IMG/VR virus record: IMGVR_UViG_3300011422_000009
Span: 1-41,554 of that record
Length of the DNA stretch: 41,554 bases
DNA from: a virus
Taxonomy: Duplodnaviria; Caudoviricetes
Reading direction: 5' to 3' (one strand)
Shown here: piece by piece, positions 1 through 28,128 of the stretch
Position numbering within the stretch: position 1 is the first letter of the stretch
How the letters are laid out: the number at the start of each line of letters is the position of its first letter
Position numbers and translations under genes: made by a program
Notes under the pieces: generated by a model
Database searches by the model: none
What the model was told of the DNA's origin: nothing
What the model saw: the letters and a program-made list of their open reading frames with translations, nothing else

Positions 1-81
1 CAGCAACGCAGCAACGCAGCGGGGTATAGGTTTGTGGTTAAACGCAGTACATAACATTACATAACAAAAAGGGGTTTTACA

Positions 82-576
82 ATGGCAAGCAAGGCAACAA
101 TTACACAGTTACAAAACGTTTTACTGGCAACCCGCAATTTTAAGTTGCAACCTTTAACCCGCGCACAGCGCATAAACTTTTACCGCGCCGCACGCAACCC
201 GTACGCAGTACGGTATAGCGCAACGGGTAACCCTACGGGGTTACCCGTAGGGTTAACGTTTGTAGGGTTTGTACAGGGGTATACGGTATTGCGCAACCCT
301 AACAAACGGGGTTATACAATTGTACGGGTATACAGTACGGGGTACGCAGCAACCCCGTTTTACAGCGCAACCCGCAAGGGTATACCCGCTGCAATAGCGT
401 ACAAACTTGCGTACGGCGCAGCAATGCGCAGTACAAACCATAGTGCATGGCAAATAGGGTACAAATACCCTGCGCCGTTGCAAGCACAGGTACAGCGCGC
501 AGCGCGTACCGCTGCGCGTATGCAGTTGCTTGCGTTGCAAGCACAAATTGCAGCGGGTATACCCGTTGTAGCGTAG
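82..576 (+). CDS. hypothetical basic protein lacking Asp/Glu (164 aa)
   Basis: ATG preceded by AAAAAGGGG SD-like site, TAG stop, non-repetitive protein-like sequence, flanked by intergenic hairpins like the neighbouring genes. Confidence 0.75.
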   Translation: MASKATITQLQNVLLATRNFKLQPLTRAQRINFYRAARNPYAVRYSATGNPTGLPVGLTFVGFVQGYTVLRNPNKRGYTIVRVYSTGYAATPFYSATRKGIPAAIAYKLAYGAAMRSTNHSAWQIGYKYPAPLQAQVQRAARTAARMQLLALQAQIAAGIPVVA

Positions 577-581
577 GTTAC

Positions 582-670
582 GTTAAAGGCGTACGGTTAC
601 CCCGCTGCGTTGCGCAAGGCAACACAACGCAGCGCAGCGCAGCGCAGCGGGGTATACGTTTGTTTTTAAC
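582..670 (+). repeat. long intergenic inverted repeat with GCGCA/CGCAG units
   Basis: TACCCCGCTGCG pairs with CGCAGCGGGGTA, and outer GTTAAAGGC pairs with GTTTTTAAC. The 3' half resembles positions 15-60. Confidence 0.7.
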
Positions 671-703
671 TATACATAATACGTACACAGCAAGGGGTAC
701 ATA

Positions 704-1141
704 ATGGGGTTAACAAATAGCACAGCAACAAAAGTTGCAAACGCAAGGCATAAGCAAAAGGTAGCAAGGTTTAACGCAACGCAAACCCGCAAACTAGCAA
801 GCACAAAACCCGCACAGCGCGCACAAGGCGCAGCAATGCGCAAACCTGCGCAGCGGGGTAACCCACAACCCAAACTTAAAAAGTTACCTATAAAAATAGG
901 GTTGTGCGGGGTTGCCTTGCTAGGTTACCCGCACAATATATGGCATATGCAAAGCAATATGTACATAAATACCGTGTTGCAAATACGCGCGTACGCCTTA
1001 CATACGCTACCAAACGGTTACATATGGTTTTACGTACCCGCAAAAGGTAGCAAACCCGCGTACCATATTAAGGCGCACAGTAACCCCGCTACCTTTACAG
1101 CGGGTATACAACAATTTTACATAATAAAGTGGTTAAAATAG
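704..1141 (+). CDS. hypothetical basic protein lacking Asp/Glu (145 aa)
   Basis: AAGGGG SD-like site before ATG. K/R-rich N-terminus and aromatic, globular-looking C-terminus. Confidence 0.75.
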   Translation: MGLTNSTATKVANARHKQKVARFNATQTRKLASTKPAQRAQGAAMRKPAQRGNPQPKLKKLPIKIGLCGVALLGYPHNIWHMQSNMYINTVLQIRAYALHTLPNGYIWFYVPAKGSKPAYHIKAHSNPATFTAGIQQFYIIKWLK

Positions 1142-1143
1142 GT

Positions 1144-1226
1144 TACATATAGGCAACACAAACCCCGCGCCGTACGGCGCAACCTACGGGGTTTGTGTTG
1201 CTTGTTATGTACACTATGGTACATAA
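1144..1226 (+). promoter_or_regulatory. double-hairpin intergenic element, copy 1
   Basis: Perfect stem GCAACACAAACCCCG/CGGGGTTTGTGTTGC, then overlapping short hairpin TTATGTAC-actatg-GTACATAA. Confidence 0.7.
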
Positions 1227-1265
1227 AACACAACTTTACATAACCAAGAAAGGTTATAACTTACC

Positions 1266-1655
1266 ATGCAAAACAATACCGCAACCCTTACCCCTATTGT
1301 TAAAAACAATGCTTTAGGGCAATTTGCACACTATGCGCAAGCACAGGCGCAAAAGGCGCAAGCACAGGCGCAACGCCTTGCAAACGCAACCTACGTACTT
1401 GTTAAACCTAGCAAGGCAAACATTACACGTAACAAGCAAGGGGTTACCGCACAGCAACAAGCACAGGTTAACGCAAACCTTGCTGCAACGCTTGTATTGC
1501 AACTGTACCCTTTAGTTGCGCAAAGTGGTTTAACCCCTGCGCAGCAAGCACAGGTACAGCAACACTTGTTGCAAAGTGTATATACATTGCAGCAAGTTAC
1601 AACGCTACCCGCAAGCAAGTACGCAGTACAGTTACAGTTACCGCCAAACCCATAA
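1266..1655 (+). CDS. hypothetical Gln/Ala-rich protein lacking Asp/Glu (129 aa)
   Basis: AGAAAGG RBS at 1247-1253, helical Q/A/L-rich sequence, TAA stop. Confidence 0.75.
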   Translation: MQNNTATLTPIVKNNALGQFAHYAQAQAQKAQAQAQRLANATYVLVKPSKANITRNKQGVTAQQQAQVNANLAATLVLQLYPLVAQSGLTPAQQAQVQQHLLQSVYTLQQVTTLPASKYAVQLQLPPNP

Positions 1656-2165: not shown

Positions 2166-2172
2166 AGAAATT

Positions 2173-2312
2173 GCAAAACAAATCTCGCTACAGAAAATGC
2201 AAAACAAATCTCGTGGGCAAAAAACAGCCACAAAATCTGGTAGCAAAAAATAACCACAAAATCTGTAGCAGTTTTTGCAAAACAAATCTAGCAGTTTTAC
2301 CAACACAAATCT
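2173..2312 (+). repeat. array of six AAATCT-core direct repeats (iteron-like)
   Basis: AAATCT at 2180, 2206, 2233, 2259, 2284 and 2307, with 23-27 bp spacing. Three copies read GCAAAACAAATCT. Confidence 0.8.
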
Positions 2313-2328
2313 CATAAAGGGGCAAAAC

Positions 2329-2565
2329 ATGAAGCGAAAAAATATGTACGTAGGCAAACAAGTTCAGATTAATGTTAACGGCACATTAACTACAGGTATA
2401 ATCTCACACCTATACCCTAACCTTAAATCTGAACTACAGCAACAGGTAGAAATAGATGTACTGCATAATGGGCAATTCTTAAGCCTAACATTGTACGCCT
2501 ATCAAATCTACGCTGTGCCACATATTACCACCAACAAATTTGACCCATACGTACAAATTGCCTAA
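2329..2565 (+). CDS. hypothetical protein (small beta-rich, possibly SH3-like)
   Basis: Start moved to ATG 2329 after the AAAGGGG RBS. Sequence VGKQVQINVNG..TGII suggests a small beta-barrel (inference). Confidence 0.7.
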   Translation: MKRKNMYVGKQVQINVNGTLTTGIISHLYPNLKSELQQQVEIDVLHNGQFLSLTLYAYQIYAVPHITTNKFDPYVQIA

Positions 2566-2573
2566 CAACAATC

Positions 2574-2636
2574 TGCAAACTAGGCAGCATAAGCAAAACA
2601 AATCTTGTGCTGCATAGTGTGCAAATCTGTTGCACA
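2574..2636 (+). promoter_or_regulatory. double-hairpin intergenic element, copy 2
   Basis: TGCAAACTAGGCAGCATAAG pairs with CTTGTGCTGCATAGTGTGCA, then TGTGCAA-atctg-TTGCACA. Confidence 0.75.
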
Positions 2637-2666
2637 ATAAACCAAAATCAAATCGGAGGTAACAAA

Positions 2667-2939
2667 ATGCAAGACGGGCGCAACTACAGCGGTTTAAGCG
2701 AAAGCGAAATAAGCACGCTACTAGATCTGAGGGATAGGGTATACGAAGATCATGGTTGCATAACGCATAGCCAAAACCACCGTATTCTGATTAACCTATG
2801 CTACCATATGATGTGGGAAATAACCACAGCATTATCTGAAGAGGGTGGTAGCTGGCAAGAAGATGAGGCGTTTTTGCAAACACACGAAAAGTTGGTACAG
2901 TTGCTCAACTATACCCGCCCCGTATATTCCGAAGACTAG
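2667..2939 (+). CDS. hypothetical protein
   Basis: GGAGGT RBS before ATG 2667. Confidence 0.75.
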   Translation: MQDGRNYSGLSESEISTLLDLRDRVYEDHGCITHSQNHRILINLCYHMMWEITTALSEEGGSWQEDEAFLQTHEKLVQLLNYTRPVYSED

Positions 2940-2959
2940 CATAAAACAAAACAACAATC

Positions 2960-3020
2960 TGCAAACTAGGTTGCACAAACAAGAAGGTTTGTGCAACATA
3001 GTGTGCAAATCTGTTGCACA
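2960..3020 (+). promoter_or_regulatory. double-hairpin intergenic element, copy 3
   Basis: 21-bp stem TGCAAACTAGGTTGCACAAAC/GTTTGTGCAACATAGTGTGCA with 2 mismatches, then TGTGCAA-atctg-TTGCACA. Confidence 0.75.
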
Positions 3021-3052
3021 TAAAATACCAACACGATCAGAAAGGCACAACA

Positions 3053-3535
3053 ATGTTTATGGATACATGGGTTGCTACCGATGGGATTACTACGGTACGC
3101 TTTTCCGACCTGCAAAGCGCAGAAATATATTGCGCCCAAACAGGATGGCAAACATCTGACCTTTGGTGTATACGGCAGCAACTAATCGTAACACCAGATG
3201 GGGAAAGCGCAATAGTAGAACCCTGGTGCAATCGGATGGACCCAGATGTAGATACAGAAGTACAAGGTACGTGGCTAGATCATGTGTTTGTACCGCCTGC
3301 AAATTCTGTAGCCAACGGTACAAGCGAAGATGATGTACCTGTAACCTACAGTTCTGAATATCTACGCCAGCTAGGTAGTATTTCAGAGCGGCTAAGGTGG
3401 GATTTTCGTGACCTAGCTGCAACAGAACCCACTATTTATAACAATCTAGTGGCTTACGTTAAAAAGTGCGATGCAAAGGGCAAGAAACCTACCCTAAAAG
3501 AAGCAGAAAAAATTGTGGGTAGGTACGCCAACTAA
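3053..3535 (+). CDS. hypothetical protein
   Basis: AGAAAGG RBS before ATG 3053. Confidence 0.75.
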   Translation: MFMDTWVATDGITTVRFSDLQSAEIYCAQTGWQTSDLWCIRQQLIVTPDGESAIVEPWCNRMDPDVDTEVQGTWLDHVFVPPANSVANGTSEDDVPVTYSSEYLRQLGSISERLRWDFRDLAATEPTIYNNLVAYVKKCDAKGKKPTLKEAEKIVGRYAN

Positions 3536-3541
3536 TCTGGT

Positions 3542-3611
3542 TTGCAAGCAAAGGGTACGGCCCATCATCAGATGGGTGGGCCGTTACCTTTACTTACAAT
3601 CTGGTAAGTAA
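3542..3611 (+). promoter_or_regulatory. double-hairpin intergenic element, copy 4
   Basis: AAAGGGTACGGCCCATC pairs with GGTGGGCCGTTACCTTT, then TTACTTAC-aatctg-GTAAGTAA. Confidence 0.7.
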
Positions 3612-3644
3612 CACACAAAACAAAGTTCAGAAAGGACTTATAAA

Positions 3645-4124
3645 ATGCCTTCTCCAAGTAAGCGTACTCAGATTGCCGCTATCTTAAAGCAGCAATATGG
3701 CAATCAAGTAGATACGCCAACGGTAAAGCAACAAGCGAATTACGAAGCGCACAAAGCTGTATCAGAATACTCACATGGCTATTATCAGGATTGGGGTGTT
3801 CTGGTAGGTATGTACGCAGGGTACTACGTAATTCAGCTTGACAGAAATGTAAGAACAGATCGGGATGCCAACGAAAATCTGTATGTTGCTTTCCGACTTT
3901 ACTACAACATCTATAGCTTTACCCATGAAAATGAAATTTGCTATATCCCGCAACATAGCAATGGGGTCGGAGGCCAAACGCTAGATGACTGCCTAAATGC
4001 AATCTGCTATCATATTGCCCACAACGCAGCTTATCGCAGCGCAAACACAGGATTGTGGCAACGTAGGCTTCCAGTTCATTTACAGCAACTTCCCAACGTA
4101 CCTAATCGGTTCGGAGTAAGCTAG
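3645..4124 (+). CDS. hypothetical protein
   Basis: AGAAAGGA RBS, 159-aa ORF. Confidence 0.8.
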   Translation: MPSPSKRTQIAAILKQQYGNQVDTPTVKQQANYEAHKAVSEYSHGYYQDWGVLVGMYAGYYVIQLDRNVRTDRDANENLYVAFRLYYNIYSFTHENEICYIPQHSNGVGGQTLDDCLNAICYHIAHNAAYRSANTGLWQRRLPVHLQQLPNVPNRFGVS

Positions 4125-4126
4125 GT

Positions 4127-4180
4127 TGCACATAGGCTGCATAAACAAGATTTGTGCAGCTTATTGTGCAGATTGGCACA
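4127..4180 (+). promoter_or_regulatory. double-hairpin intergenic element, copy 5
   Basis: TGCACATAGGCTGCATAAA pairs with TTTGTGCAGCTTATTGTGCA (G-U pairs), then TGTGC-agattg-GCACA. Confidence 0.72.
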
Positions 4181-4219
4181 GCAAGCAAACAAAGCAAAGT
4201 TCAGAAAGGCTTTATACAA

Positions 4220-4495
4220 ATGTCAGAATATCCATTGGTTGCCGTACCCCACTTACATGAAGATCAATTCATGGAAGGGGATGGGGATATGGGTTTTGCC
4301 GTACATCCGATGGCTGGCTATGGTACAATCATAGTTAGCGTGGATGGATGGGATTGCCCGTTGCAATTCTTCCGAGTAGACGGCATGGGTAGCTATCAGG
4401 TTTACGAATACGTAAACGAAGAAGATGGTGTAATCTGTTACATGGTTAATCCATCAGAGTTTGCCACTGTAGTACCTGTATCGCAAGAAGTGTAA
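4220..4495 (+). CDS. hypothetical acidic protein
   Basis: AGAAAGG RBS before ATG 4220. Confidence 0.75.
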   Translation: MSEYPLVAVPHLHEDQFMEGDGDMGFAVHPMAGYGTIIVSVDGWDCPLQFFRVDGMGSYQVYEYVNEEDGVICYMVNPSEFATVVPVSQEV

Positions 4496-4499
4496 TCAC

Positions 4500-4562
4500 G
4501 CACACGATACGGCATAACCCCCACAATCTGTTGTGCCGTATAGTGTACAGGATTGCTGTACA
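4500..4562 (+). promoter_or_regulatory. double-hairpin intergenic element, copy 6
   Basis: ACACGATACGGCATAAC pairs with GTTGTGCCGTATAGTGT, then TGTACAG-gattg-CTGTACA. Confidence 0.7.
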
Positions 4563-4601
4563 GTAATCGTCCTATGAAATCTCCAGAAAGGGATACATGA
4601 A

Positions 4602-4832
4602 ATGAAGTACATATTGCTAGTACGTAAAGATGGCGAGGAAGCACGACCAATAGAATGGGGTGCAAGAGAACGCCTACGTACTTTCCAGCTAGGCTACAAA
4701 CATGGTCTTTTGGATCAGGGTTGGAAGAGCTATGCCACTTATCAAAAAGATTATTACAATTTGGTAGATGGCAAAGGTAAACACATCCAACTATATATTC
4801 TGACCGAGCAAGAATGGAAAGACGAGAACTAA
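4602..4832 (+). CDS. hypothetical protein
   Basis: AGAAAGGGA RBS, 76 aa. Confidence 0.7.
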   Translation: MKYILLVRKDGEEARPIEWGARERLRTFQLGYKHGLLDQGWKSYATYQKDYYNLVDGKGKHIQLYILTEQEWKDEN

Positions 4833-4833
4833 C

Positions 4834-5115
4834 ATGCACTATGTAATGTACAAAGAAGCTGACGGCAACAGTGAACCGGAAGTTCTGTTTGCTGGCAATA
4901 GAGACAAGGCTATCGGTTACTACGAAGGCTTTGTAGATGCAATCCAAAGAATGGGCAACCATACACCAGATTTTAGGGGTGGCATGAAAGACCCAGATAT
5001 TGATTTACGGATCGCACGCATACACTTCTATCGTAACGATAATCCTGGTTACGCTTTCAACTTATGGGTTAAGAATTTACAACTTCCGAGAGCTTATAAC
5101 TACAAAGAAAGATAA
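4834..5115 (+). CDS. hypothetical protein (paralogue of 7738-7998)
   Basis: Abuts the upstream gene. Shares E-x-LFAG...Y...DAI and F-x-LW motifs with 7738-7998. Confidence 0.75.
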   Translation: MHYVMYKEADGNSEPEVLFAGNRDKAIGYYEGFVDAIQRMGNHTPDFRGGMKDPDIDLRIARIHFYRNDNPGYAFNLWVKNLQLPRAYNYKER

Positions 5116-5121
5116 ACAACC

Positions 5122-5199
5122 ATGTTGCACGTAGAACCAGAATTTGCCATTATCGCAATTGTGTTCTTACTGTGTCTATTGTGGGGCCGTAAGGTTTAG
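5122..5199 (+). CDS. possible 25-aa hydrophobic peptide
   Basis: MLHVEPEFAIIAIVFLLCLLWGRKV with AGAAAG upstream. Fills the gap before the next hairpin element. Confidence 0.4.
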   Translation: MLHVEPEFAIIAIVFLLCLLWGRKV

Positions 5200-5200
5200 G

Positions 5201-5260
5201 CGCAAACTAGATGCTATCACCTGATTAGATGGTAGCATTTAGTGTGCGAATAGACGCACA
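5201..5260 (+). promoter_or_regulatory. double-hairpin intergenic element, copy 7
   Basis: CGCAAACTAGATGCTATCA pairs with TGGTAGCATTTAGTGTGCG, then TGTGCG-aataga-CGCACA. Confidence 0.72.
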
Positions 5261-5297
5261 ATATCTTATTAGCTAGGTTTCAAGAAAGGAACCAAAC

Positions 5298-5801
5298 ATG
5301 AACGCCAACACCACCACGATCAAGTTCCCCCGCTTCAAGAAGGATGGGATCATTGCCAATGCCGTTAAAAACCATGAAGATTATATGGCTCGGCAGAAAG
5401 CACGTTTCACCTTCATCAAGCAAGCGGCACGCATGATCGATGAGAGCTGGTTGCCTGAAGATAGCCGTTTCTACGTAGAAACCTACGGTATGACCATCTA
5501 CATTCCTTGGTCAAAGGCTAATCTTATTAAGGCACGCAAGGCTATCGGAGCTGGCTGGAAGTACGATAGCCAATACCAGAACGATAATGGTACGCTGACC
5601 AAGAATTATCACACATACTTGGAAAGCGAATACATTAGCTTGACTCTGGTAATGGATGCAGAGAAGTTGGTCGAAGGTACTTGCAAGAAGGTCTTAGTGG
5701 AAAGCAAGACCGAGATGGTGCAAGTCACACGGCAGACCTATAAGGTCATCTGCGAAGATGGCACAGAAATGATGGAAGTAGAAACAGAACGCAACGTGTA
5801 G
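5298..5801 (+). CDS. hypothetical protein
   Basis: AGAAAGGA RBS, 167 aa. Confidence 0.8.
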   Translation: MNANTTTIKFPRFKKDGIIANAVKNHEDYMARQKARFTFIKQAARMIDESWLPEDSRFYVETYGMTIYIPWSKANLIKARKAIGAGWKYDSQYQNDNGTLTKNYHTYLESEYISLTLVMDAEKLVEGTCKKVLVESKTEMVQVTRQTYKVICEDGTEMMEVETERNV

Positions 5802-5884
5802 TGCAGAGGACGGCACACCCATGATCTTGTGGGTGGGCCGTAATGCGCCTTCCACTCGGAAGCTGGTTCCAAGTCCAGGCACAT
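5796..5884 (+). ncRNA. twister-like self-cleaving ribozyme (circularly permuted, type-P5-like)
   Basis: GCA-GAG-GA-[P1 CGGC..GCCG]-UAA-UGC-GC-[P3 CUUCC/GGAAG]-[P4 CUGG-UUCCAAGU-CCAG]. Both pseudoknot pairings (GA:UC and GC:GU) are satisfied. Confidence 0.82.
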
Positions 5885-5905
5885 TATTACCCAGAAAGGT
5901 ATAAC

Positions 5906-6160
5906 ATGAAAGAAGAAGAAGGTACGTATCTTCTGCAATTCCAGTTCGATGAGGCAATAGACATGGAAACAGAATGGTTCTACCATCTGCAACATGCGTT
6001 GGTGCGCCTTACGTATCTGAGCCAAATCCACCCCGACTATCTGGTAGCTTGTATCTTATTCCAGGCTAGGGATGGTGCGCTGTTCGATGTGTGTGAATTT
6101 AACATTCGGATAGGCTATGGTTTTGAAACAGATAGGATCCCCTATGCTACGGAATTGTAG
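5906..6160 (+). CDS. hypothetical protein
   Basis: AGAAAGG RBS before ATG 5906. The longer track start overlaps the ribozyme. Confidence 0.7.
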   Translation: MKEEEGTYLLQFQFDEAIDMETEWFYHLQHALVRLTYLSQIHPDYLVACILFQARDGALFDVCEFNIRIGYGFETDRIPYATEL

Positions 6161-6425
6161 TGCAGATACTTTGTACGGCAAAGCAGATGATAGGCTTTCT
6201 CGCATTACGTCTGCCTTACTACATCTAGCGCAAGAAAAGCAAGAAAGCTGGGAAGATTGCGTACTGTGGTCTGCTCCTACAGAGTGCTGGAAGCAGATCG
6301 AAGATACGCATGATCGCAAGAAAAGCCTAGTTCTCTTCTATGTAGGTATGGATGAAACCGAATGGCTTGCTGCCGTAAGAGAACGCACCAGTGAACGATG
6401 GGTCTATTACAACTTACCATTTTAG
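6144..6425 (+). CDS. hypothetical protein
   Basis: AGGA before ATG 6144, short overlap with the upstream gene. Confidence 0.65.
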   Translation: MLRNCSADTLYGKADDRLSRITSALLHLAQEKQESWEDCVLWSAPTECWKQIEDTHDRKKSLVLFYVGMDETEWLAAVRERTSERWVYYNLPF

Positions 6426-8001: not shown

Positions 8002-8053
8002 CACATAGGTTGCATCAGGATCTGGTGCAACTTATTGTGTAGATATGCTACAC
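8002..8053 (+). promoter_or_regulatory. double-hairpin intergenic element, copy 8
   Basis: CACATAGGTTGCATCAG pairs with CTGGTGCAACTTATTGTG, then GTGTAG-atatg-CTACAC. Confidence 0.72.
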
Positions 8054-8092
8054 GATAATCTATTTAGTTGGTTTCAAGAAAGGAACTACATC

Positions 8093-9124
8093 ATGGCACA
8101 CAATCTTTTCAACGAACGCTTCTACTCCCTTCGCCAACCTGCTTGGCACGGACTAGGGAAGATCGGTGAAGAGGAACAGACGGCAACGGAGATCTTCAAT
8201 GGGATGCAACCATACATTGTGACTCTGGAACCTGTCTTCACTAAGGTTGGCAACATCAAGTTGGAGTTGCCTAATCGTGTGATCACTCGCCACCCGCTTC
8301 CTGACGACAACAATTTCCGCAGTTTTGGGATTGTTGGGCCGGAGTACACAATGGTAGATCCACTTCGCACTTGTGAAATCTGGGACGAATCTACCAAGAA
8401 GCCCGTTGAAACGCTCGGTGTTCTGGGGCAAGGTGAGAGCATCTTCATCACCACAAAGCTACCCTCTTTCCAGATCATGGGAAATGGTAGCGTAGCGGAT
8501 GATGTGGATAGCTATCTTCTGTTGCACAGTCCATACGGTGATGGCGCAATTCAAGTTCGTGTTACGCCAGTACGTGTGGTCTGCCAGAATACGTTGATTG
8601 CAGCGAAATCTGCCAGCACCGAGAGTTTCAGGATCATCCACGATAAGGACGTAGAAACACGTCTGTCTGGTTGGATGGAGGGCATTGTGCAACGTGCCGA
8701 AAAGAAGAGCGAGTATCTAGCCGAATGCTTCAATTACATGGCTTCCACTACCATCGATGATGAGCAAGCAGAAGATGCTCTCAAGCGTATCTATGTGGAT
8801 CCCCGTAAGCCTTCTTATGTTCCTGACCAGTCGGTTATGGAACGGCGAGAAAAGGCTTACGAAGCCAATCTAAAAGCGAACATCGGCTGGCGGGAGCGTG
8901 TTATGGAAGATTGGCAAGGTGAGGGCATGGGCATGGACTCAGACGTGCTGAAGGGTACGGTATGGGGTCTGTATAATGCTGTAGTGGAGATTGAAGACTA
9001 TCGTCCTACAGTTGGCCCTATCGGGGACAGTCGTCAGTGGAATACGCTTTTTGGGGATCGTAGTAAGACCAAAGAGCTGGCTTACGAGCAACTGTTCCAG
9101 TATTCCATCGAGTCGAATACCTAA
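8093..9124 (+). CDS. DUF932 / TIGR03299-type phage/plasmid protein
   Basis: Family-typical motifs MAH..., PAWHGLG, ETLGVL..G..IF, TPVRVVCQNTL and GTVWGLYNAVVE..D. AGAAAGGA RBS before ATG 8093. Confidence 0.85.
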   Translation: MAHNLFNERFYSLRQPAWHGLGKIGEEEQTATEIFNGMQPYIVTLEPVFTKVGNIKLELPNRVITRHPLPDDNNFRSFGIVGPEYTMVDPLRTCEIWDESTKKPVETLGVLGQGESIFITTKLPSFQIMGNGSVADDVDSYLLLHSPYGDGAIQVRVTPVRVVCQNTLIAAKSASTESFRIIHDKDVETRLSGWMEGIVQRAEKKSEYLAECFNYMASTTIDDEQAEDALKRIYVDPRKPSYVPDQSVMERREKAYEANLKANIGWRERVMEDWQGEGMGMDSDVLKGTVWGLYNAVVEIEDYRPTVGPIGDSRQWNTLFGDRSKTKELAYEQLFQYSIESNT

Positions 9125-9393: not shown

Positions 9394-9450
9394 CAAACAG
9401 ATAGCTCTCATGAAAATGGGAGCTATTTGTTTGCACTATACAATGTGCAA
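9394..9450 (+). promoter_or_regulatory. double-hairpin intergenic element, copy 9
   Basis: CAAACAGATAGCTCTCAT-gaaa-ATGGGAGCTATTTGTTTG, then TTGCAC-tatacaat-GTGCAA. Confidence 0.7.
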
Positions 9451-9597
9451 ATTACAGCGTAGGGTATAGGCAAAACACCTGTTTTAAGGTTTTATACGCC
9501 TATAGTGTACGCTGTAAAAACACCTATACCCCATTACAGGTACTACCCCACACAAAACACCTATACAACGTTTTGCAAGGGTAGTACAGCCACCCAA
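9422..9597. other. GA/TC-free intergenic island with inverted and direct repeats
   Basis: No GA or TC for about 176 bp. Inverted repeat TTACAGCGTA..TATAGGC/GCCTATA..TACGCTGTAA at 9452-9517. AAAACACCT at 9472, 9517 and 9554. Confidence 0.8.
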
Positions 9598-9615
9598 GAA
9601 AGGTCAAGATATGAG

Positions 9616-10542
9616 ATGAAGCTCATCCGGGATCGCTGGATGCCTATGTTTCAGCTTGCTAGAGAATTGGAACCCAAAGTAGATAAACTCTACAAAGGGG
9701 ATCCAGAATACTCTAAGGCTTTCGTAAAGAAAGCAGAGCAAGGCATGAAAGCGGACTATCGTGCGGCAGAAGCCTTGATGGCAATATCTGAAACTATTGT
9801 GCTGCCATCCAGCATTATGCTGGATTTAGTTCACAATATCGACAGAATCGACACCACAGGATGGATTAAACTGCCGTATCCCTACGTTACCATTCAGTTC
9901 ACCCACCCTATTTTAGAAACTGAGATCATGCTCCATGAGGAAAAGAATGACCTCATGACCAGATTTGGTTTAGAAAATGATACGGTGGAAGGAATCATCC
10001 TTGGTAACGCAGATCAGGATCAACGTCCTTTTCCACCACAGCATGTTTTCAACATGATGAATTGCTGCATACTGTTCAACTCAACAAGTGTGAACAGAGT
10101 AGCGTGGATAGGGACGAGCAGTCCGGCAAGACCTCACTGGCAGAACAGCATGTTCCGTGAAAGTGAGATGCCATACAAATCTAGGGAAAATAAGTACAGG
10201 ATGATCAAGTTATGTTATGCGATTAACCTGTTCTTAAATGCTCCCAACGTCATCGTAGTAAAAGAGAAGCCAGATCCCCACGTTAATGCAAAGCGTGAAC
10301 GTAAGGGGAAGGCTATCCTGCCGGAATACCATACGGTGACAATTCAGAAGATACAAGTGAAATACGCAGAACCTAGCGGGAAAACGGGAACGGCCCACAC
10401 ACGTATGTATCCTGTGCGTGGTCACTTCCGTAAACTTGCACAGTTTGAAGACCCAATCTGGGTGCATAATCACTTCCGTGGACTCAAACATGGCGAAGAA
10501 AGCCTCGTCAAAGAGATCTACAGAGTTGCGCCCAAGAAGTAG
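9616..10542 (+). CDS. hypothetical protein with C-terminal VRGHxR...W...H.RG motif
   Basis: Start moved to ATG 9616, since the upstream part of the track ORF is the non-coding island. The basic C-terminal His/Arg motif is recalled from phage proteins of unknown function. Confidence 0.8.
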   Translation: MKLIRDRWMPMFQLARELEPKVDKLYKGDPEYSKAFVKKAEQGMKADYRAAEALMAISETIVLPSSIMLDLVHNIDRIDTTGWIKLPYPYVTIQFTHPILETEIMLHEEKNDLMTRFGLENDTVEGIILGNADQDQRPFPPQHVFNMMNCCILFNSTSVNRVAWIGTSSPARPHWQNSMFRESEMPYKSRENKYRMIKLCYAINLFLNAPNVIVVKEKPDPHVNAKRERKGKAILPEYHTVTIQKIQVKYAEPSGKTGTAHTRMYPVRGHFRKLAQFEDPIWVHNHFRGLKHGEESLVKEIYRVAPKK

Positions 10543-12980: not shown

Positions 12981-13291
12981 TAGTTCCCCCCGATACCAAT
13001 AGAGCGTGCCGTAGCCGGATCAGCTTCATGGATAAGACCGTTGAGCATCATGAGCGCACCCGTAGTACGTTGGATTTGCTCTTCTACTTGCTTGAGCCTT
13101 TCCTGGATAGCCTCACGGTCAGCCTTGATGCCATTAAGATCAGATAGTAGTTCTTTACGCTTTTCCACGAACGCATCAATATCCATAGTTGCTGTCTTCT
13201 GTGCCGTACTTGCTGTTTGTTCCACGATCATATCCCCTGCGTTCCTCTCCGAGTGATTCTGATTGTTGCGGATTGTGGCTTCAGCTTCCAT
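12980..13291 (-). CDS. hypothetical coiled-coil protein (possible fibre chaperone)
   Basis: AAGGAG RBS, heptad pattern, directly downstream of the fibre gene. Confidence 0.7.
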   Translation of the reverse strand: MEAEATIRNNQNHSERNAGDMIVEQTASTAQKTATMDIDAFVEKRKELLSDLNGIKADREAIQERLKQVEEQIQRTTGALMMLNGLIHEADPATARSIGIGGN

Positions 13292-13311
13292 TGTAATTCT
13301 CCTTGCGATAG

Positions 13312-16300
13312 TTAAATAGTGTAGATAAAGTAACCAGAAATAAACGTGTTATTGGAGAAACTAGCATTAGTTACTTGTGACATAGATGCTGCACCCGCTG
13401 CCGGAGCAGCGAAGAAGCGTGCGGAATTGCTTCCTGCTATGCCACGTAGAACCATTGATGAGAAGGTAGTTACACTAAGATTAAGATAATTTACTGATCC
13501 CCCAACTGTATTGTCTGGTACAACGAAAGGGAAACTAGCTAACTCAGCAGCACCAGATGATAGTGACCCTTTGTTCATCAAGGATACTTCATACATAATA
13601 ACAACAAGATTACCTATACGTATCCAAGAACCCGACCTAGATTGATAAGTTACTCCGGCAGCACTATTAGCGAATCGTACATCTGGAGTATAGACTCCAC
13701 TCTCAAAGTAGGTAAGAGTGCTTTGTCCGAAATTGATACCTGCGCTGGCAGTTATAAGACCAGTTGCTCTAAGAGTACCTGTAACTTCTAGCTTGTACGC
13801 AGGAGCAATATTTCCAATACCGACGTTTCCGGCAGCAAGGATAGTTAAGCGATCAAGTGCATTTGTACGTAAGCTAAGATCATGATTGCTCCATGATCCT
13901 ATATAGTTGTTGCCGTTACTATGGGCGAACATACCCATTTCTTGCCCAAGTGAGTTTTTAAGATGGATACTGGCAACACTAACATTTGGAGAAATCTGTA
14001 TACCACCTGTATAGAAACTAACTGCTCCTACAGTTCCTGGCCCCACATGAAGTAATGCTCCTGGAGCCGTATTGTTGATCCCCATATAACCAGTAGTCTT
14101 TATGGTGGCTCCTGTTACTGAGGAAAGATCTGTAGAGGGGGAGATGGCGAAAGCATCAGCCAATGAACCGTCAATTCCTATTGTCCAGTTGGTCGTCTGT
14201 TGTGTAAATTGTAGACGTGCATCCCCTGCTCCTGCTTGCTGTATCTTCAAACCAACGGCAGAGATAGCCGTAGAATTATCATAGATATGCAAACTATGAT
14301 CAGGGTTGGTTGTGCCGATGCCGATGTCTCCCGTTGATTCTATTCTCATCCTCTCGACGTTACTCGTGCCAAAAATAAGATCATGAGCATTGACAGTACG
14401 GATGACAAGACGAGCAGCATTAGCAGCGAGCGAGACGTCACCATTGGTTAACGGCCCCGACGTTCCCCACCCGCTACCCATCATACCGAATACACCCGAA
14501 GTCCCTGCCACACCACGTACCGCCACTTGCGCCAACGCTCCTGCTCCCGTCGAAAGATTCTCCATCATCAACGTAGTTGAAGTCGCCTGATCTTTCTTGA
14601 TATGGACATAGTAAGCAGGAGCAGCAATTCCGAAGCCAAGATCTCCTGCCGCCGTTATTCTCATCTCCTCTACATTGTTGGTAGCGAAGATCATGTCATT
14701 AGCACCAATGGTGCGGAGTACCAACCGTGTAGAACCACCTGTGATATAAGCATCTCCACTGGTCATCGGCCCTGTTACGCCGTAGCCGCTACCGAGAACA
14801 CCCATTGTAGCAGATGCAGCACCACTACGAGCAGAGAGTGAAGCGACGGCCCCTGCTGCTGTGGATGGATTCTCAGAAGTAATATTGGTTACTGCTCCTT
14901 GGGATTTAGAAACGTGTAGCAGATAGATAGGAGTATCCGTACCGATACCAACTTCACCCGTTTCTACAATCCTCATCCATTCAGTACCGCCATTGCTATT
15001 TGTATATCGCAAACCGCCACCCTGCAAGCCACGAATTTGAGCTAAGGCAGCGGGAGTCGTCCCTTTATAAAAGATGAGATAGGGTTCCACCCCTACGGCA
15101 TCACTTGTGCGTGAAATGCGAATACCGGCGGCTGCACCTTCAACATGAAGCAGAGCTCCAGGACTTATCGTGCCGATGCCGACGTTACCATCGTTATGGA
15201 CACGCATAGCCTCGACACCATCGATGTAGGAGATGACATGACTACCAGAAAGATTCAATGGATAGTAGAGCAAATTGTTATCGTTGTAGGAGTTTAGAGT
15301 AGTCGAAGTAGCACTCACGCTCCAGTCAGAGCGCAAGTTAGGATGCGTCCCACGTCCTAATCTTATAGTGCTGACTGAGCCACCCCGAAATTCAGCGACA
15401 GCAGTAGAAGGGATAATCGTAGTTGTACCTACACCAAGTTGATGTGCTATGTAAGTAAGATCATCTCGTATGAAGGCAGCAGTTTCGGATCTTGTGGTTG
15501 CTACGTTGCCGCTTCCGAAGTAAGCTCCCGTAGAATCTAACCAAATATTGGAAGCTACTGTGGTCGTAGAGTTGATTCCGGCAAGTCTAACGGCCCCACG
15601 AGTATACGAATCATGGGATAAGCCGTAGCTAAAGATCTCTGCAACGGAATAAGCAAGACCACCTACCGTCTTCTTGTCTAGCCCAACTGTTCCACGCTTT
15701 TTAGAGGGGAAGGTTGTGATGCCATCCCCCATTTCTTCATACCAACCAATAGAATTGTATTCTGCTGAACCGAATTTCATACTAATTCCACGTACTTTAT
15801 CAATTGTAAAGATTGTATTTTGTGATTGATAAAGTCGGAAATCTACATTCCATAACTTTATGCCGTTCTTCACCCCTCCGTTGGCTACGCTCCCTGTCAC
15901 CATTGCAATCCCACTCAAACCATCAGCGGGTGACTTGGTAAGATCATCTGCGGCAGCAAAGCCAAAGCCATCCGAGAGATCACCCCATCCTGCCAAACTT
16001 CCCATGCTGACCACAGGAACGGTATCATTCCAAAGTGCAGTAGCGGAACGAGAGTAAACGGTGATAGTAGGGCCAATCTTGCCATGCAAGGTAGTAAGAC
16101 TAGATAGATCTATATAGCCATCACCGACGTTCTTACCAAGACTTACAATAGCATCCCCAGATTGCCATGCGGTCGTAGGCCCACCATCTACATTACGAGT
16201 TACAGACCAGCGATAGCCATCTGTAATGACCGTATGAGTTGTAGATGTAATCTTTAGAGCTTCTTGTTGCGGCAGCGAAGTAGTAGGATTTAAGCCTTCC

Positions 16301-19300
16301 ATATACAGATAAGTATTCTGGAACCAGGAAGCCCTCATATCGTGTTTTACATCTATTGTACCCGCACCACTAGCGGCAGCAAGATCAGCAATAAGATTAC
16401 TGGTGGGTGCAATCATCACACGGCCACCAATCGTAGCCATGACCGATGAAGCCACCAATGTTTCTACATAGAGTTCTGAAGCATAAAGACTACGCCATTT
16501 ACGATTATAATAGCCTATGTCAATCTTACCAGAACTCGTAGGTAACATCTTGGCATAAGGTGCTATAAGATTACCAGGATTGATGACTAGATCACCACCT
16601 GAATTGATGCTGAGGATAGTAGCCGCAGGTGATGTAATCTTCCTTGCGCCACCTATGAAGTTTAGATCACCGCTAATCTGTGGATTTGTATTGAAGGTAT
16701 AGACGCCAGTGTTGAACTGCGCTCCGGCACTCATATATACCATCGCATTGAAAGTAGCGGTCTGCGCCCAACTTTGGATTCCAGTCCAATCGAAGGCATA
16801 GGCACGATTCACGGCCACACCATTAGGATCTACTGTAATTCCCTGATAAGGCTTTACAGATACTCCCGTAGCCCCTACCAGAATACCGTTATCTTCCTTA
16901 ACCCAAACACCCAAAGTATCTGAGATAATACCATGATAAGGTTTAACATCTACTGTGTTTGCCGTTACTAAGATCCCATTTCCTGGCCCTACGTCAAATC
17001 TCATAGGAGTAGCCAGTGTGCCACCACCCGTAAGACCATCTCCTGCGGTGATAGTATAATCTGTAGTGAGTACCTTACTAAAATCTAGCGATAACTCAAG
17101 ATCACCCGTTAACGGCCCACCACCTATAAGACCACCCGTAGGTGGAGTTAAGATTTGGAGATCTGTACGTACTACAGTATCATCTACCGTTAAGCTGGGA
17201 TTCGTACTGATGGGTGCGCCACCCTGGATGCCACCATTAAGAGGTGTAACAATAAGAGCAGAAGCTCTTGCGACTTGGGTGAAATCTACAGCCAGTGTTA
17301 CATCACCCGTTAATGGCGCACCACCTGTAAGACCACTTCCCGCTAAGGTCTTGATCTGTGTAGTTGTAGATACAACATCATCGAAGTCTACGGCTAAAGT
17401 ACGGTTGGCTGTAAGATTACCACCCCCCGTAAGACCGCTTCCCGCATTAGTGAAGAAAGTGATCGCGCTACGAGCAATGGTATTGTCTACATCCATGATC
17501 TTATTGGTCATAATAAGACCAAGACCAGCGATGCTATCGCTAATCCATAGATCATTATTTACATCAAAAGCCAAACCAGAATAGGGTGCAGCCAACTGGA
17601 TGCCAAGAGTACGTGTGGCCGCAAGAGTCCCGCCACCGTACATCCCATTTCCAGGTAAAATAGACGTTGCGGCAAGAGCAACATAGGCAGGATCAATGTT
17701 CATAATCTTGCCAGGAGCCATGTCAAGCCCTGTTCCGGCAAGCGCATCATTAAGGAATATACCACTGGCACTCACGGTAAGACCACTACCAGATTGCGTT
17801 AAGGCTTGGATGAGGATGTCGGGGCCAGCTAACGTCCCACCTCCTGTAAGACCATTCCCTGCCGTAATCGTGGTCGTGGTACGAGCTACAGAAGCATTGA
17901 CGCTGATGTTACTACCAGCCAGGATAATACCATCTCCTGCTGTGAATCCCGTTGGCGGCGGAGAACCAGAGGCACTAAATCCTGGAATTGTGACTTGTCC
18001 TGTACTAGGATCAAAGGTAAAGAAATCATTAGTGCCTAATCGTTCACTGGCAGATATCCTAAACTTTCTGGGAAAGGTACTATCAATTCCTATAGAATAC
18101 CACTGATCCGACATAAAGACCGGATAGTTGTCGGGATCATATTGGTGCATTCTGAAATGCAGTACGGCATCACCGATTGCACCACCACCTGGATCCCATG
18201 TGCCTTGCTGCTCAATCGTGACGCCAACTTTACGACCAGTTTCAGTACCCGCATTAGTGATATTAAGCTGCGATGAGCTTATGTGATCACTGAAACCTAT
18301 ATGAACATTACGACCTAGCTTCACTTCTTCAGCCATCAAACTAGCTACTTCCCCATATACACCAGTAGATAGCATAGATTTAGTGCTAAGATTTAGTGAA
18401 GCAAATACTTCATCGTAATAATTTGCCGCTTGTAGGGATATAGAAGCTTCCTCAACTAGCTCTGAGGAAGTCATCATGGTCATACCTAACTCACGTACAA
18501 GATGACCACCACCTCTATCCCAAAAAGCCGCAGTAATAAAAGCGGCTGGATAAAAGCCCTCAGTAGGTGGATTAGCTATATCATCATACCAAGTAATATT
18601 TCTTAATGGATCATTTCCGGCTAACGAATCAAAGCGCATTGAGATACCAGTATCTCGCTTGACTATCAAGCTCTCAATGCTACCTTGATACATCGTTAAA
18701 TTAGTATCGTAGAAGTCAGCACCATCTTCGTTAATAGATATACCGATGAAGCCATCTCCAGGAACCTTCGCCAAACTGTTTCCGGCAGCCAATCCATAGG
18801 TATCTGTAGTGTTTCCTAACACTCCATTAAGATTACCCATCCTCACTTTATTGAGGAAGTGCGGTGCATTTCCAGCTATTGCATCAAAGGTCTGTACTTG
18901 GATGTACGGGCCTTTATTGGGATGAAACAAACTCGTCGCATAGACCACACCTTGACCGTGAGGTTCTTCAACAGTAGGTGGTTGGCCGAAGTCAACACCT
19001 GTTTCACCCTTATGGATGAAAGCACCTGTGAAGCCACCTTCCCTACGCTTGAGCCGCCATAACTGACGTGACGGCCTTTCATCTTCGGGTGTCTGTGTTA
19101 CTCGATTAACATAATCATTAACGCCAGCATCTATTACAATGAAGTTTACGGTTTGGATTACTAGATTAGTTTCCCAATCAATTGTGCGGAACTGTATCCA
19201 GTTATCTACCAAGAATAACTTGTGGCCGTCTAGACCAGGAGCTTCCTCAAACCATACATCTACATTAGCATTGATGGCCGGAACTTCAAAAGTTGTTTCT

Positions 19301-22900: not shown

Positions 22901-25900
22901 CCTGATGCCGCCACTTTGTTAAGTAAGGTCAAAAGTTTAGAATCAAATTCTGCATAGATACTAGCCGCTGACATCCCAGGAGGTGCATTGATTACGATAG
23001 CACCCGCATCTACTCTTATGTTTGATGTCTTCACTGTATTACCGCCCATCCCAGTTATAGAACCTGGAATTACTTTATCATAGACTCCGCCTTCGCCCCT
23101 GACAGTAGGACTGAATCCGGCAGCAGATGGCCCACCCGTACCAATCCTAACAATCACATCTTCTGGCTTTGGTAGTGCATCTATAATACCTTGCTGCGTT
23201 TCTATCGAATCACCGATTGCTTCTATCGCCTCATTAGTGGTCTTTAGTGCATCTTGTAAAGGCCCAAGATCCTCACCTGTAAAGGCGGCATCAGCGATCT
23301 TTTCCTCGATAATAGCCTTACGAGCATTAGCCCGAAGAAGCTTATCTTCCAATAAATACTTTTTATGTTCCTCAAGCGCAATAGCAGTTGCACGATTCTC
23401 AGCTTCCTGCCAAGCAGAATTAGCGAAGTTAAGATCAATCATTCGTTGATTGTGCGCCGTATTCAAAGCAGTGAGTTCTGCCGTAGCATGTTCACCAATT
23501 TGCGTAATACGTTCACCATGCACCCGATTCATCTCCAAGAGTTGTGCATTGTGATGGGTTTCATCCTTACCCAACCGTATCCCACGATCAATATCTTCTT
23601 CTGATTGCCTAAGAATATGAGCATCCTTCATATCCTGCAAGCGTTCAGCATCCTCAAGCCCTTGTTCTTCCAATCGATCTGCGGCAGCAGCTTGTTGATC
23701 TGCAAGTTGTAGAGCATGAGCTTCATTAGCATCTGCTACACGTTCCAGATGCGCTTTGTTTTGCTCTTCGATTTCTTCTTTAAGATTTTCCTGTATCTCG
23801 GCCAGCAACTTATCTTGAGCTTCTTTGTTTTCTACAAGTTGCTCATCTAACTTTTCTTTTTCCTTCTCAACTGCTATCTTCTTATCTTCTTCTGCTTGCC
23901 GTTGCTTTCTTGCAAAATCACGTTGTTCTTGGTATACGGCAGCAGCATCTAATCTAGAAGCAGCATCTAGGATGGCATCATTATGATCCTCTGCCGCCCT
24001 TTTCTGTTGCTTCTTAAAATCTTCTTCAATTTCCAAGATGCGTTTGGCAGAGTCTTCACGAGCTTCAAGTTGCTTCTCATTAAAGTCTTCAATAGCATCT
24101 TCGGTTCGCTTACGAGCTTGCTTATTAGCATCTGCTATGCTTTCCTGAAGATCTTCAGCATACTCTGCAAGTCTACGATTATGATCCCTGGTCATCCTAG
24201 CTATATCATCAGCTAAGTCTTCCTGAGCTTTTAATCTATCCTTCGCCATATCTTGTTCGGCTCTGGCGAGATCGGCAGCAAAGTGTGCGTTATCACGAGC
24301 ACGCTTCCTAGCAAAGTCAGCCGCTTCCTCAGAAACCTGTTCCTGATAGTCTCGTTCTACTCTAGCCCGTTCCCTAAAGTAGCTACGATTCTCATCCAGT
24401 ATAGCTTGATCAGCATCAGCCGTGATTCTTCTTCGTTCCGCAGCAAAAGATACCATTTCATCTATCTGGTCTGCTGTTGGTCCCACATCACGAGTACTCC
24501 CTGTGGGATCTGGTCCAGAATAGTCCAGATTAAGACCTTGCTCCATGACTCGTGCTGCGTTCAGAGCAATCACAGAGTTGGTAGCCGCCTTGAGCATTAC
24601 GTTCACTTCTGCAAATTCTTGCGCTATCCTCTCGGCTGTAGGCTCAATCCCCAACATTGCTGTACTGAACTTCCCTGCTTCCATATTAGCTTTCGTCATC
24701 TCCAAGCCTAGCTGGATTGATCTGGCTTGTCCTAGACTATGACGATTCTTATCATCTTTTCCCCAAATCCCACCTTCTACATCCCCCATACGTGTAAATT
24801 GATCAGGAGATTTTCTATTTATTTCATCGAAGAACTCGGTTGCTGATTCTGCAGCAATCGTAAATCTTTTAGCCAGAAAATCTATTGGCCCACCAACGCT
24901 CTCTGAGATCGCTAAACCAAGATTATCATAAGCCGCAGCAAGTCTTTCTACTTCTGTAGCTTGTCCTGCCGCACTATCGGCAAGAGCACCATAACGTTCC
25001 ATAGCATGATCTAGTACCGCATTTTGATAGGCTTGCTGTTTTGTGAGAGAACTATTAGCCGCCATCAACTCGTTAGTTTTCTTGCGTACTACATCATATT
25101 GTAAGCCTAACTGATCTAGACGCTGTCCACGTTGCGTGAACATCTCTAATATCAAGTCATTCTCTACTGCATCTTGCGGTCTACCTGTAGCTAATGAAAT
25201 ACCACGAATGGATTTAGCCGCTTGCTCAATTTCTTTTGCGCTATCGGCAAAGCCTACACTAAGTAATTTTGTGACGCCTTCCAGTTGCTGCTGCTTACTG
25301 AGAACACCACCAGTGGCTTCCGAATATACTTGCAGTAGTTCATTAACTTCCCCTTGACTACCAGCTAGACTCCTTGCCGCTACAGCTTGACGAGAATAGG
25401 CGGCGGTTACTGTATCGGCAGCAGCAGCCGCATCCGTAAGATTCTTTACAACGGCTGTGATCTGCCCTACAATCGCACCCCCTGCAAAGCTCCCCGCACC
25501 TAATCCAACTAAGCCACCCAACAGTCCGGCCCCACCACCCCCACCTAACGCCTTACCAACCGTACCCAAACCCTGCAAAAGTCCGCTAGTACCCCATGCC
25601 GCACCCCAACCGCCTTGACCGCCGCCTTGCCTTGCTGTGCGTCCCGCTTGCCTCTGTTGCAGCAACATCATACGGTTCTGTTGCTGGAACGCTGCCATCG
25701 CAATACGTTGCTGATGATTCTGCGATGATAGATTCGCTGCCGCAGCCGCTTGAGCAGCTTTGCTATTGGAGCTTATGATCGCAGCTTGTACCTTGCCCGT
25801 TGCTGTCACAGCCGCTTGGATTTGCTTCTGTGCCGCTACTGCAACTTTCGCATTAGCTGTGTGTGCCGCTTGCGAAGCCTTTGATGCTTGCATCTGCTGT

Positions 25901-27722: not shown

Positions 27723-27723
27723 C

Positions 27724-28128
27724 TTATTCTTCCTCTCCTAATGTTACAAGACCCAACCTTGCGATTCTCTTCAAAGATTGCAATATTCTTGGTCCCCAGA
27801 AATCTTTTGCGGGAACTAGAATAGAGTAACGTCCTTGATGTGCTAATTCCAACCAGATAGTATAGTGTAAAGATGGATCGTGCTGTAGCACAATCGTACC
27901 AATGGGACCGCTAGTAGGATCTACCCAAGCCTTCAAACCTTGTCTGGCTTTTGTAGTTCTGTCCTTCCAAGGAGCATTATCCTTTGCCCATTGCTCCATT
28001 TCTGCTGCTTGCCGTATCGCTACATTCCTACCTGACTGGAAAGTTGCTTGCAAGAATAGTTCTGTGGTCTCCCCCATTCTGGTAAGGGAAGCTGGATTCT
28101 TTACGTATACCCCTGATTGATTCGCCAT
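27724..28128 (-). CDS. HK97 gp10-like neck/tail-completion protein
   Basis: Motifs AKDNAPWKDRT..ARQGL and Y.IWLELAH.GRY.IL.PA. Confidence 0.8.
   Translation of the reverse strand: MANQSGVYVKNPASLTRMGETTELFLQATFQSGRNVAIRQAAEMEQWAKDNAPWKDRTTKARQGLKAWVDPTSGPIGTIVLQHDPSLHYTIWLELAHQGRYSILVPAKDFWGPRILQSLKRIARLGLVTLGEEE

Follow-up and report, generated by a model that had tools for sequence, protein, structure and literature searches.

The window analysed here is the whole of IMG/VR record IMGVR_UViG_3300011422_000009 (41,554 nt; G000), a fragment of a long-tailed phage in which three consecutive open reading frames (ORFs), ORF1, ORF2, and ORF3, encode proteins without Asp or Glu. These genes lie in a zone of approximately 5 kb from which the dinucleotide GA and its complement TC are almost entirely missing, and the basic, acid-free character of the proteins is largely a by-product of this DNA rule. 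Our preferred explanation, held with slightly more than even confidence, is that a first-entering cassette, together with the promoters of the phage, is kept free of the phage's own base modification. The features at this end of the window are the following (N, any base; H, any base except G; D in DNA words, any base except C).

1–2166, no strand assigned: right part of the GA/TC-free zone, with 1 GA and 0 TC in 2166 bases
82–576, plus strand: ORF1, 164 aa, no Asp or Glu, an accessory zone gene with a homologue in the zone of the relative G004
577–700, plus strand: long intergenic hairpin (arms 582–615/637–670; fold z −7.8) and the G-run ribosome site CAAGGGG of ORF2
704–1141, plus strand: ORF2, 145 aa, no Asp or Glu, with a predicted basic N-terminal helix, a Pro/Lys linker, and a five-stranded SH3-like barrel (residues 66–145)
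1142–1265, plus strand: intergenic hairpin (fold z −7.5 for 1142–1262) and the ORF3 ribosome site AAGAAAGG
1266–1655, plus strand: ORF3, 129 aa, no Asp or Glu, Gln/Ala-rich and mildly basic, the most conserved zone gene (21 clusters)
1656–2166, no strand assigned: non-coding, GA/TC-free end of the zone, rich in repeats and palindromes (inverted repeats 1687–1743, 1739–1803, 2004–2075, and 2112–2165)
2167–6200, no strand assigned: gradient in which TCNH/DNGA climbs from roughly 41 per kb to roughly 120 per kb, with TCNG/CNGA steady near 30 per kb

The density of GA and TC in the window outside positions 1–2166 was 0.126 per base. Contig L038, which is 100% identical to the window across positions 1–1954, adds 2801 GA/TC-free bases upstream, giving a zone of at least 4967 bp with one exception in this phage. 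Zones of 4623 bp (three exceptions), 4720 bp (none), at least 4782 bp (none), and 5363 bp (one) were found in G001, G003, G004, and L039, respectively, and a zone of about 5 kb (4.6–5.4 kb) is present in eight lineages of this siphophage clade. The only GA of the window zone, at position 1248, falls within the AGAAAGG ribosome site of ORF3. A matching exception occurs at position 31313 of G001, and six of the eight lineages respell the ORF3 site without GA, using G-runs or AAAGG. The left edge of the zone is sharp and coincides with a motif conserved in five phages, TATCGGRGATGGGTCGGATC followed about 25 bases on by AATGCCGCAAGTACCTA.

G001 27720–27800, G003 24120–24190, L039 1010–1090, G004 about 4830–4900, and G002 about 2490–2560: two-part left-edge motif

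Contig L046 starts three bases inside this edge, and the motif suggests a candidate packaging (cos or pac) site or chromosome end. The preliminary description had called the three genes immediate-early; from their position at a likely genome end, they are probably among the earliest genes.

In contrast to the left edge, the right edge is graded over 4–5 kb. In all six right flanks, TCNH/DNGA rose from 34–59 to approximately 100–140 per kb across 4–5 kb on both strands, whereas TCNG/CNGA remained at about 30 per kb. The shift in context was significant (Fisher p from 8e-4 to 2e-11) and had no counterpart in five control dinucleotides; the six flanks are mutually related and hence are not independent tests. 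Thus the strict rule is a purge of TCNH/DNGA, and TCNG is spared in the flanks and in one relative, G002. The zone of G002 follows a relaxed TCNH rule, with CNGA accounting for 85% of its 73 GA, compared with 19% elsewhere.

Three intergenic places outside the zone also carry recurring GA/TC-free runs of 150–180 bp, and the chance of one 150-bp run is approximately 1e-5 per genome. Two of them lie in the window.

9421–9597, no strand assigned: intergenic window of 177 bp without GA or TC, reaching as far as the ribosome site of the gene at about 9613–10542
37214–37364, no strand assigned: 151-bp GA/TC-free intergenic window upstream of the helicase/replication operon, with the extended −10-like sequence TGTGCTATACT

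The run before the gene at about 9613 was found at three loci, with orthologous 178-bp windows in G005 and L039 and a broken one in L044. The helicase-operon run was found at seven loci; it measures 151–171 bp in G001, G003, G004, G005, L051, and L056 (54–90% identity among six aligned) and 116 bp in G002 under the relaxed TCNH rule. The third place, just left of the zone edge, was found at four loci. The helicase and left windows persist in G002 once the relaxed rule is applied, so zone and windows relax together to TCNH in this relative, indicating that one agent shapes both. From their position, these windows are presumed to be promoters. The purge acts on double-stranded DNA, these distant presumed promoters included, and in a defined sequence context. 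A sigma-70 promoter scan of the zone contig L038 returned 5 sites, compared with 5.3 expected. An extra gene of normal GA/TC content (2643–3104, minus strand; 153 aa), with a start resembling GIY-YIG, is inserted in G002 between the zone edge and the left window. A separate 124-bp GA/TC-free, C-rich run in the tail region of G005 (13202–13325) encodes a Gly-rich linker and is probably a composition effect rather than a promoter; its counterpart in the window (approximately 25505–25616) is free of TCNH for 112 bp.

The preliminary description, made from the sequence of the window, had reported that the three ORFs lack Asp and Glu, and this was borne out, since their 164 + 145 + 129 = 438 residues include neither. 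The codon restriction that it listed was likewise recovered, with AGY for all 15 Ser codons, TTT for all 10 Phe codons, and TAG, TAG, and TAA as stops. It had further described Gln, Asn, and Thr as abundant. Gln is indeed raised (10.7%, against 4.0% in the other genes and 5.3% across the six frames of the zone; 25 of the 47 Gln residues sit in ORF3) and Asn mildly so (6.2%, against 4.6% and 4.0%), but Thr is not (8.0%, against 8.2% across six frames). The suggestion that these residues replace Asp and Glu was not supported: in P0034, the one homologue that has acidic residues, none of the nine acidic columns holds Asn or Gln in the window protein, and across the ORF2 family only a minority of these columns hold either. 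The term "very basic" fits ORF1 (net charge about +20) and ORF2 (about +22) and not ORF3, which is mildly basic (8 Lys plus Arg; net about +8).

That these are real genes evolved on a restricted alphabet was supported by purifying selection, ribosome sites, and a conserved frame, most weakly for ORF1. With raw proportions computed on protein-guided alignments, the nonsynonymous proportion (pN) of ORF3 was 0.14–0.33 and the synonymous proportion (pS) 0.64–0.83 in all nine pairs involving the window. ORF2 gave pN 0.31 and pS 0.73 against L039 and a ratio of 0.10 between G003 and L046; between the same close strains, ORF3 showed synonymous changes at 11 of 126 sites and replacements at 9 of 380. 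The ORF1 homologue in the G004 zone is 39% identical over 82 aa (pairwise E 2e-11), and a candidate in L039 was not significant pairwise (E 0.59). Judged by sequence comparison, ORF1–ORF3 are genuine genes, with saturated synonymous sites and conserved proteins, ORF3 and ORF2 strongly and ORF1 through one good homologue.

Long overlapping ORFs do occur in the zone, for example one of 288 aa on the minus strand, as would be expected if the three ORFs were spurious products of stop-codon scarcity. We give this explanation practically no credence: none of 2000 third-order Markov simulations tiled three non-overlapping ATG ORFs of at least 129 aa, Cys makes up 0.2% of the three proteins compared with 6.9% across six frames, and homologues are separated by saturated synonymous sites. 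The comparisons refute it for ORF2 and ORF3, and for ORF1 the case rests on the one significant homologue. Selection on the proteins for basic, acid-free sequence, with the DNA pattern following, would suit the strongly basic ORF1 and ORF2 and the nearly acid-free families. However, the 843 intergenic bases of the zone hold 1 GA and 0 TC, compared with about 106 expected; because intergenic DNA is purged too, the constraint acts on DNA and the missing Asp and Glu follow from the DNA rule. TC, GA across codon borders, and TCN, TTC, and ATC codons are absent as well. Furthermore, a homologue regains acidic residues mainly in the spared context: in the ORF2 relative P0049, 7 of 10 Asp/Glu come after Ala, Thr, or Pro, giving CNGA (p = 0.025), a context deduced from the protein because the P0034/P0049 locus was not recovered. 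Protein selection is therefore very improbable, being largely refuted by the non-coding purge.

The zone behaves as an exchangeable cassette. Between the window and L039, 45–48% of the codons for identical residues differ in ORF2 and ORF3, compared with 4–17% in six genes outside the zone. Among close strains of G003, zone differences were 0/4720, 90/4714, and 33/3453, compared with 3–8% in the flanks. Together, these figures imply that the zone is exchanged as one block and is not a site of hypermutation. Zones also lack further words that differ by lineage: AGCAG is absent from G001, G003, and G004, and CCGG from the window phage, G003, and L039. AA/TT is raised within zones, and TG/CA is not depleted (observed/expected about 1.2–1.6 in four zones).

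In the favoured own-modification reading, the zone would be the first-entering end of the phage chromosome, and the phage would modify TC steps elsewhere in its genome, strongly at TCNH and weakly at TCNG. Virion DNA would then carry a context-specific modification, most likely on thymine and derived from a thymidine analogue made by a cluster of ThyX-like, dUTPase-NT5C, and flavin-oxidoreductase genes and finished on DNA by a further enzyme. Such a modification would protect the bulk of the genome and might at the same time hinder host RNA polymerase or draw modification-dependent nucleases. DNA that is read before any phage protein exists, namely the leading 5 kb, would be kept free of targets along with later promoters, and the unmodified zone would also shed lineage-specific restriction-like words. 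Zone products, chiefly ORF2 and ORF3, would lift the block, as a polymerase read-through factor or a nuclease inhibitor, after which the cost of each site would fall over the next 4–5 kb. This reading accounts for the windows, the rule that they share with the zone, and the secondary loss of words. We put forward only tentatively the narrower proposal that the phage's own enzyme decorates TCNH genome-wide and thereby blocks host transcription, with ORF2 and ORF3 converting the host polymerase or disarming modification-dependent nucleases.

Genes that could serve this purpose are present. In G001–G004, a 273-aa flavin-oxidoreductase-like gene clusters with a dUTPase-like/NT5C fusion, a small phrog_1485 gene, and a ThyX-like gene beside polymerase A. 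The 273-aa protein shares Atlas features (0.91–0.97) with NAD/FAD-binding families, which fewer than half of the members of the top clusters carry; this protein and a 309-aa clade protein had no match in cultured phages. The small gene (116–143 aa) matched only phrog_1485, of unknown function, and is putatively DUF1599-like from its motif. The module of oxidoreductase, NT5C phosphatase, small helical gene, and ThyX-like gene spans 15680–18928 in G001, with equivalents in G002–G004, and also occurs in the cultured actinophages Onyinye (genes 78–86) and Wentworth (genes 47–56), where its product is seemingly untested in the literature searched. In the ThyX-like gene, RTR replaces the RHR motif. 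A further gene may act after replication.

28028–29176, minus strand: GT4-type glycosyltransferase in the head-tail module (Pfam/PHROGs)

This gene is present in all five relative records and at three further loci (53–61% identity) and is a candidate post-replicative DNA modifier, although it may glycosylate the virion instead.

Several observations weigh against our proposal. The genome end depends on one contig start; other contigs stop at different points of the zone, and one from run X1 extends across the start of L038 (the check used assembled contigs). No kinase or amino-acid transferase family of the 5-hydroxymethyluracil (5-hmU) pathway was found with Pfam and PHROGs among the ORFs scanned, in which small ORFs and three large ones (309–370 aa and 133 aa) match no family. 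The TGT family PF01702 was found in none of five records, and the CAjan proteins DpdA, FolE, and QueC, searched against six frames of nine contigs, gave a best E of 0.37; modification with 7-deazaguanine of the DpdA type was thus ruled out by the missing DpdA/TGT, FolE, and QueC genes. Related oxidoreductase, NT5C, and ThyX-like genes also occur in Onyinye and Wentworth, whose GA/TC-free runs do not exceed 61 bp, and CAjan, which is modified at GA, has no such run above 80 bp, so neither the gene cluster nor modification in a GA context suffices for a zone. CGCG occurs at 6 per kb in the window zone and at 0.1 per kb in the rest of the genome, which argues against a simple picture of an unprotected zone avoiding restriction sites. 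The zones of G001, G003, and L039 contain no CGCG, a contrast suggesting that the window zone came from a phage of another host. Finally, the polarity of the zone and its secondary word loss fit avoidance of a host defence equally well.

Such a defence, a very frequent cutter or DNA-modifying toxin reading TCNH/DNGA in unmodified DNA, would be escaped by a leading region that encodes inhibitors, with the rest of the genome entering later. This possibility is the chief competitor of our proposal and deserves serious attention, though we think it rather unlikely. The sharp left and graded right edges, the lineage-specific loss of further words, and the exchange of the zone as a cassette, seen in the synonymous contrast with L039, all agree with it, and the accessible text of two papers describes precedents in T5 first-step DNA and in murciaviruses (PMC12455610, PMC10644984). 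It leaves the GA/TC-free promoter windows, 7 kb and 35 kb away, unexplained. A host with a defence of two-base core site would also have to protect about one-eighth of the positions of its own DNA, and we know of no defence of this kind. A related scheme is self-protection during two-step entry, in which a virion-borne or zone-encoded enzyme attacks TC/GA in host DNA while the remaining phage DNA waits in the capsid and the palindromic end acts as an injection stop. The palindrome-rich non-coding end at 1656–2166 suits it, as does the T5 precedent of first-step DNA and host DNA degradation described in the available part of PMC10644984. We nevertheless regard it as improbable: family and profile searches of zone proteins found neither nuclease nor deaminase families, proteins without acidic residues would make poor metal-dependent nucleases, and a hard stop predicts neither the gradient nor the internal windows.

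Two further agents could in principle have removed these dinucleotides. TC is a known deaminase context, and the raised AA/TT of the zones would agree with mutational loss through a cytosine deaminase that targets TC in exposed DNA. However, TC to TT made up 33 of 176 changes near the zone and 201 of 878 far from it, so there was no excess, and among close G003 strains the zone differs less than its flanks; this origin is very unlikely, being largely refuted by these counts. An even smaller chance is given to escape from a toxin that acts on mRNA in the manner of CmdT, an ADP-ribosylating enzyme whose target is GA in single-stranded RNA (10.1101/2024.02.24.581662). The GA specificity and the respelling of ribosome sites without GA would match this origin. 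Coding-strand TC is purged as fully as GA, with mirror-image context, and untranscribed promoter DNA is purged as well. The strand symmetry refutes a CmdT-type attack as the sole cause.

The zone resembles the first-step-transfer region of T5/BF23 and the early region of Murciavirus, which avoids the type I system Mme2I, in being sub-genomic, variable, probably first-entering, and composed of small early genes, with a motif purged there but tolerated elsewhere; as in T5, the motif is absent from the zone and present in the rest of the genome. It differs in that a dinucleotide is removed here, from both strands across 5 kb and at the expense of two amino acids, and in that the purge recurs at internal promoters. 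A long terminal repeat and two-step entry are features of the T5 type; in the contigs of the present phage, depth is flat by construction. Hypermodification of thymidine in TG/TC contexts is described for Pseudomonas phage M6, Salmonella phage ViI, and Delftia phage phiW-14 in the accessible text of PMC6449724, which reports no motif-free zones for them. The likeness lies in a dinucleotide context that includes TC and in a nucleotide-metabolism cluster around a thymidylate-synthase-like gene; the differences are that TG is not purged here, the rule is TCNH, the synthase is ThyX-like, and no 5-hmU kinase or amino-acid transferase family was found in the scan above. In Pseudomonas phage iggy and Escherichia phage CAjan, DpdA inserts 7-deazaguanine in a GA context, according to the available part of PMC10484667. 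GA is also the step purged here, but this clade has no homologue of DpdA/TGT, FolE, or QueC in the searches above, and CAjan has no GA/TC-free zone. Our literature search, with most subscription papers and supplements outside it, found no report of kilobase GA/TC-free phage zones or of acid-free phage genes.

Avoidance of motifs by early phage DNA is known for restriction sites of 4–13 bp; a two-base purge over 5 kb is a far stronger pressure at the DNA level, costing Asp and Glu and respelling ribosome sites. The CmdT paper deems escape from a GA motif implausible (10.1101/2024.02.24.581662). Its pattern (TCNH strict, TCNG spared, promoters included) predicts the chemistry and specificity of a modification or defence enzyme, and if the own-modification reading is true, the purged words would read out the specificity of a DNA-modifying enzyme from sequence alone. 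This is leading-region motif avoidance in a new form, and possibly a new principle if that reading holds. The zone families are natural, long-diverged proteins on an 18-letter alphabet that are predicted to fold (ORF2), and the zone genes form a short list of candidate first-acting host-takeover factors.

PHROGs and Pfam assigned no family to ORF1, ORF2, or ORF3. Single-protein searches of viral contigs with ORF1 and ORF2 returned no match, and phmmer, with ORF1 as query, recovered nothing but ORF1 itself from 80 candidates. A profile of ORF2 gave 24 matches, of which 22 were related proteins and two (P0043 and P0044) were dropped as repeat proteins. The AlphaFold2 model of ORF2 had a predicted confidence score (pLDDT) of 87 and includes a conserved basic helix, K-x-K-Q-A-x-A-R. 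Compared by VIA across Foldseek's match list, residues 66–145 resembled SH3-like barrels (Z 5–6, root-mean-square deviation (rmsd) about 3), the best being ribosomal-subunit chains of the L19 type (Z 6.0, rmsd 3.4, 65 residues aligned), with an SH3 domain at Z 5.0. These are weak matches to a common fold (Z < 8, identity < 10%), below the level that marks kinship. Foldseek with the model found nothing at E ≤ 0.001 in PDB or BFVD, the ESM Atlas gave no usable match for ORF2, and the ORF2 and ORF3 profiles found nothing below E 0.02 among PDB sequences. The preliminary description had predicted nucleic acid binding for all three proteins; this is plausible for ORF2 only, whose basic helix and small barrel make it likely, going by the model, that it binds nucleic acid or polymerase. 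The anti-defence or DNA-entry roles proposed there for the three proteins are putative.

The ORF3 family comprises 21 protein clusters with one Asp in 2820 residues, and the gene occurs in eight lineages, every copy within GA/TC-free DNA. Its AlphaFold2 model is poor (pLDDT 49) and mostly helical. An NCBIfam XopN match (18 bits, compared with a cut-off of 1000) was rejected as an artefact of Gln/Ala composition. At least one further conserved zone gene lies upstream in the same phage (L038 2472–2762; E 5e-13 to G004). Two other relationships were unsupported: L038 2173–2370 and window 2329–2562 as an in-zone/out-of-zone paralogue pair (E 22), and homology of L038 2173–2370 with L039 3688–3900.

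Shine-Dalgarno sites and intergenic hairpins flank the three ORFs as they do the downstream genes, in agreement with the preliminary description. The ORF1 site is AAAAAGGGG, and AGAAAGG precedes most downstream genes. None of 200 shuffles was as stable as the hairpins at 577–700 and 1142–1262; three downstream intergenic hairpins gave z from −4.1 to −5.5. Between early genes, long repeated hairpins with a common base (CTGCAAACTAG ... TAGTGTGCAAATCTG) occur at 2566–2660, 2945–3045, 4110–4215, about 4500–4560, and 5198–5260, three of which were folded. They have the look of sites at which the RNA of a polycistronic early transcript is processed. The word TACATAA has eight plus-strand copies in window 1–1243, often right before zone genes, and two copies, counting either strand, beyond the zone; it is possibly a promoter or regulator site.

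Relatives were gathered via the capsid gene, record searches, and an ORF3 profile, and G000 and the relative records are classed as linear fragments. Each end of G000 overlaps G001, and the two records between them make up a circle of about 56–57 kb; the longest ORF1-bearing contig has 57,344 bases. No close cultured relative was found, the best identities being 24–27% for terminase and 23–28% for polymerase. The phage is present in freshwater-sediment and groundwater metagenomes, with at least half of its words in 2 of 24 runs, one of which is possibly the source run; no RNA dataset was listed among them. The window sequence was recovered letter for letter in contigs of run X2, with short pieces in X3 and X4; X1 may be the source. 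By Pfam and PHROGs, the window carries a siphophage gene set of portal, terminase, capsid, major tail protein, SNF2 helicase, Sak4, SSB, and RuvC-like genes, along with two further features.

8045–9124, plus strand: DUF932/TIGR03299-like gene at the end of the early region (family match)
13312–20634, minus strand: tail-fibre-like protein of 2440 aa, with a family match limited to residues 1808–2019

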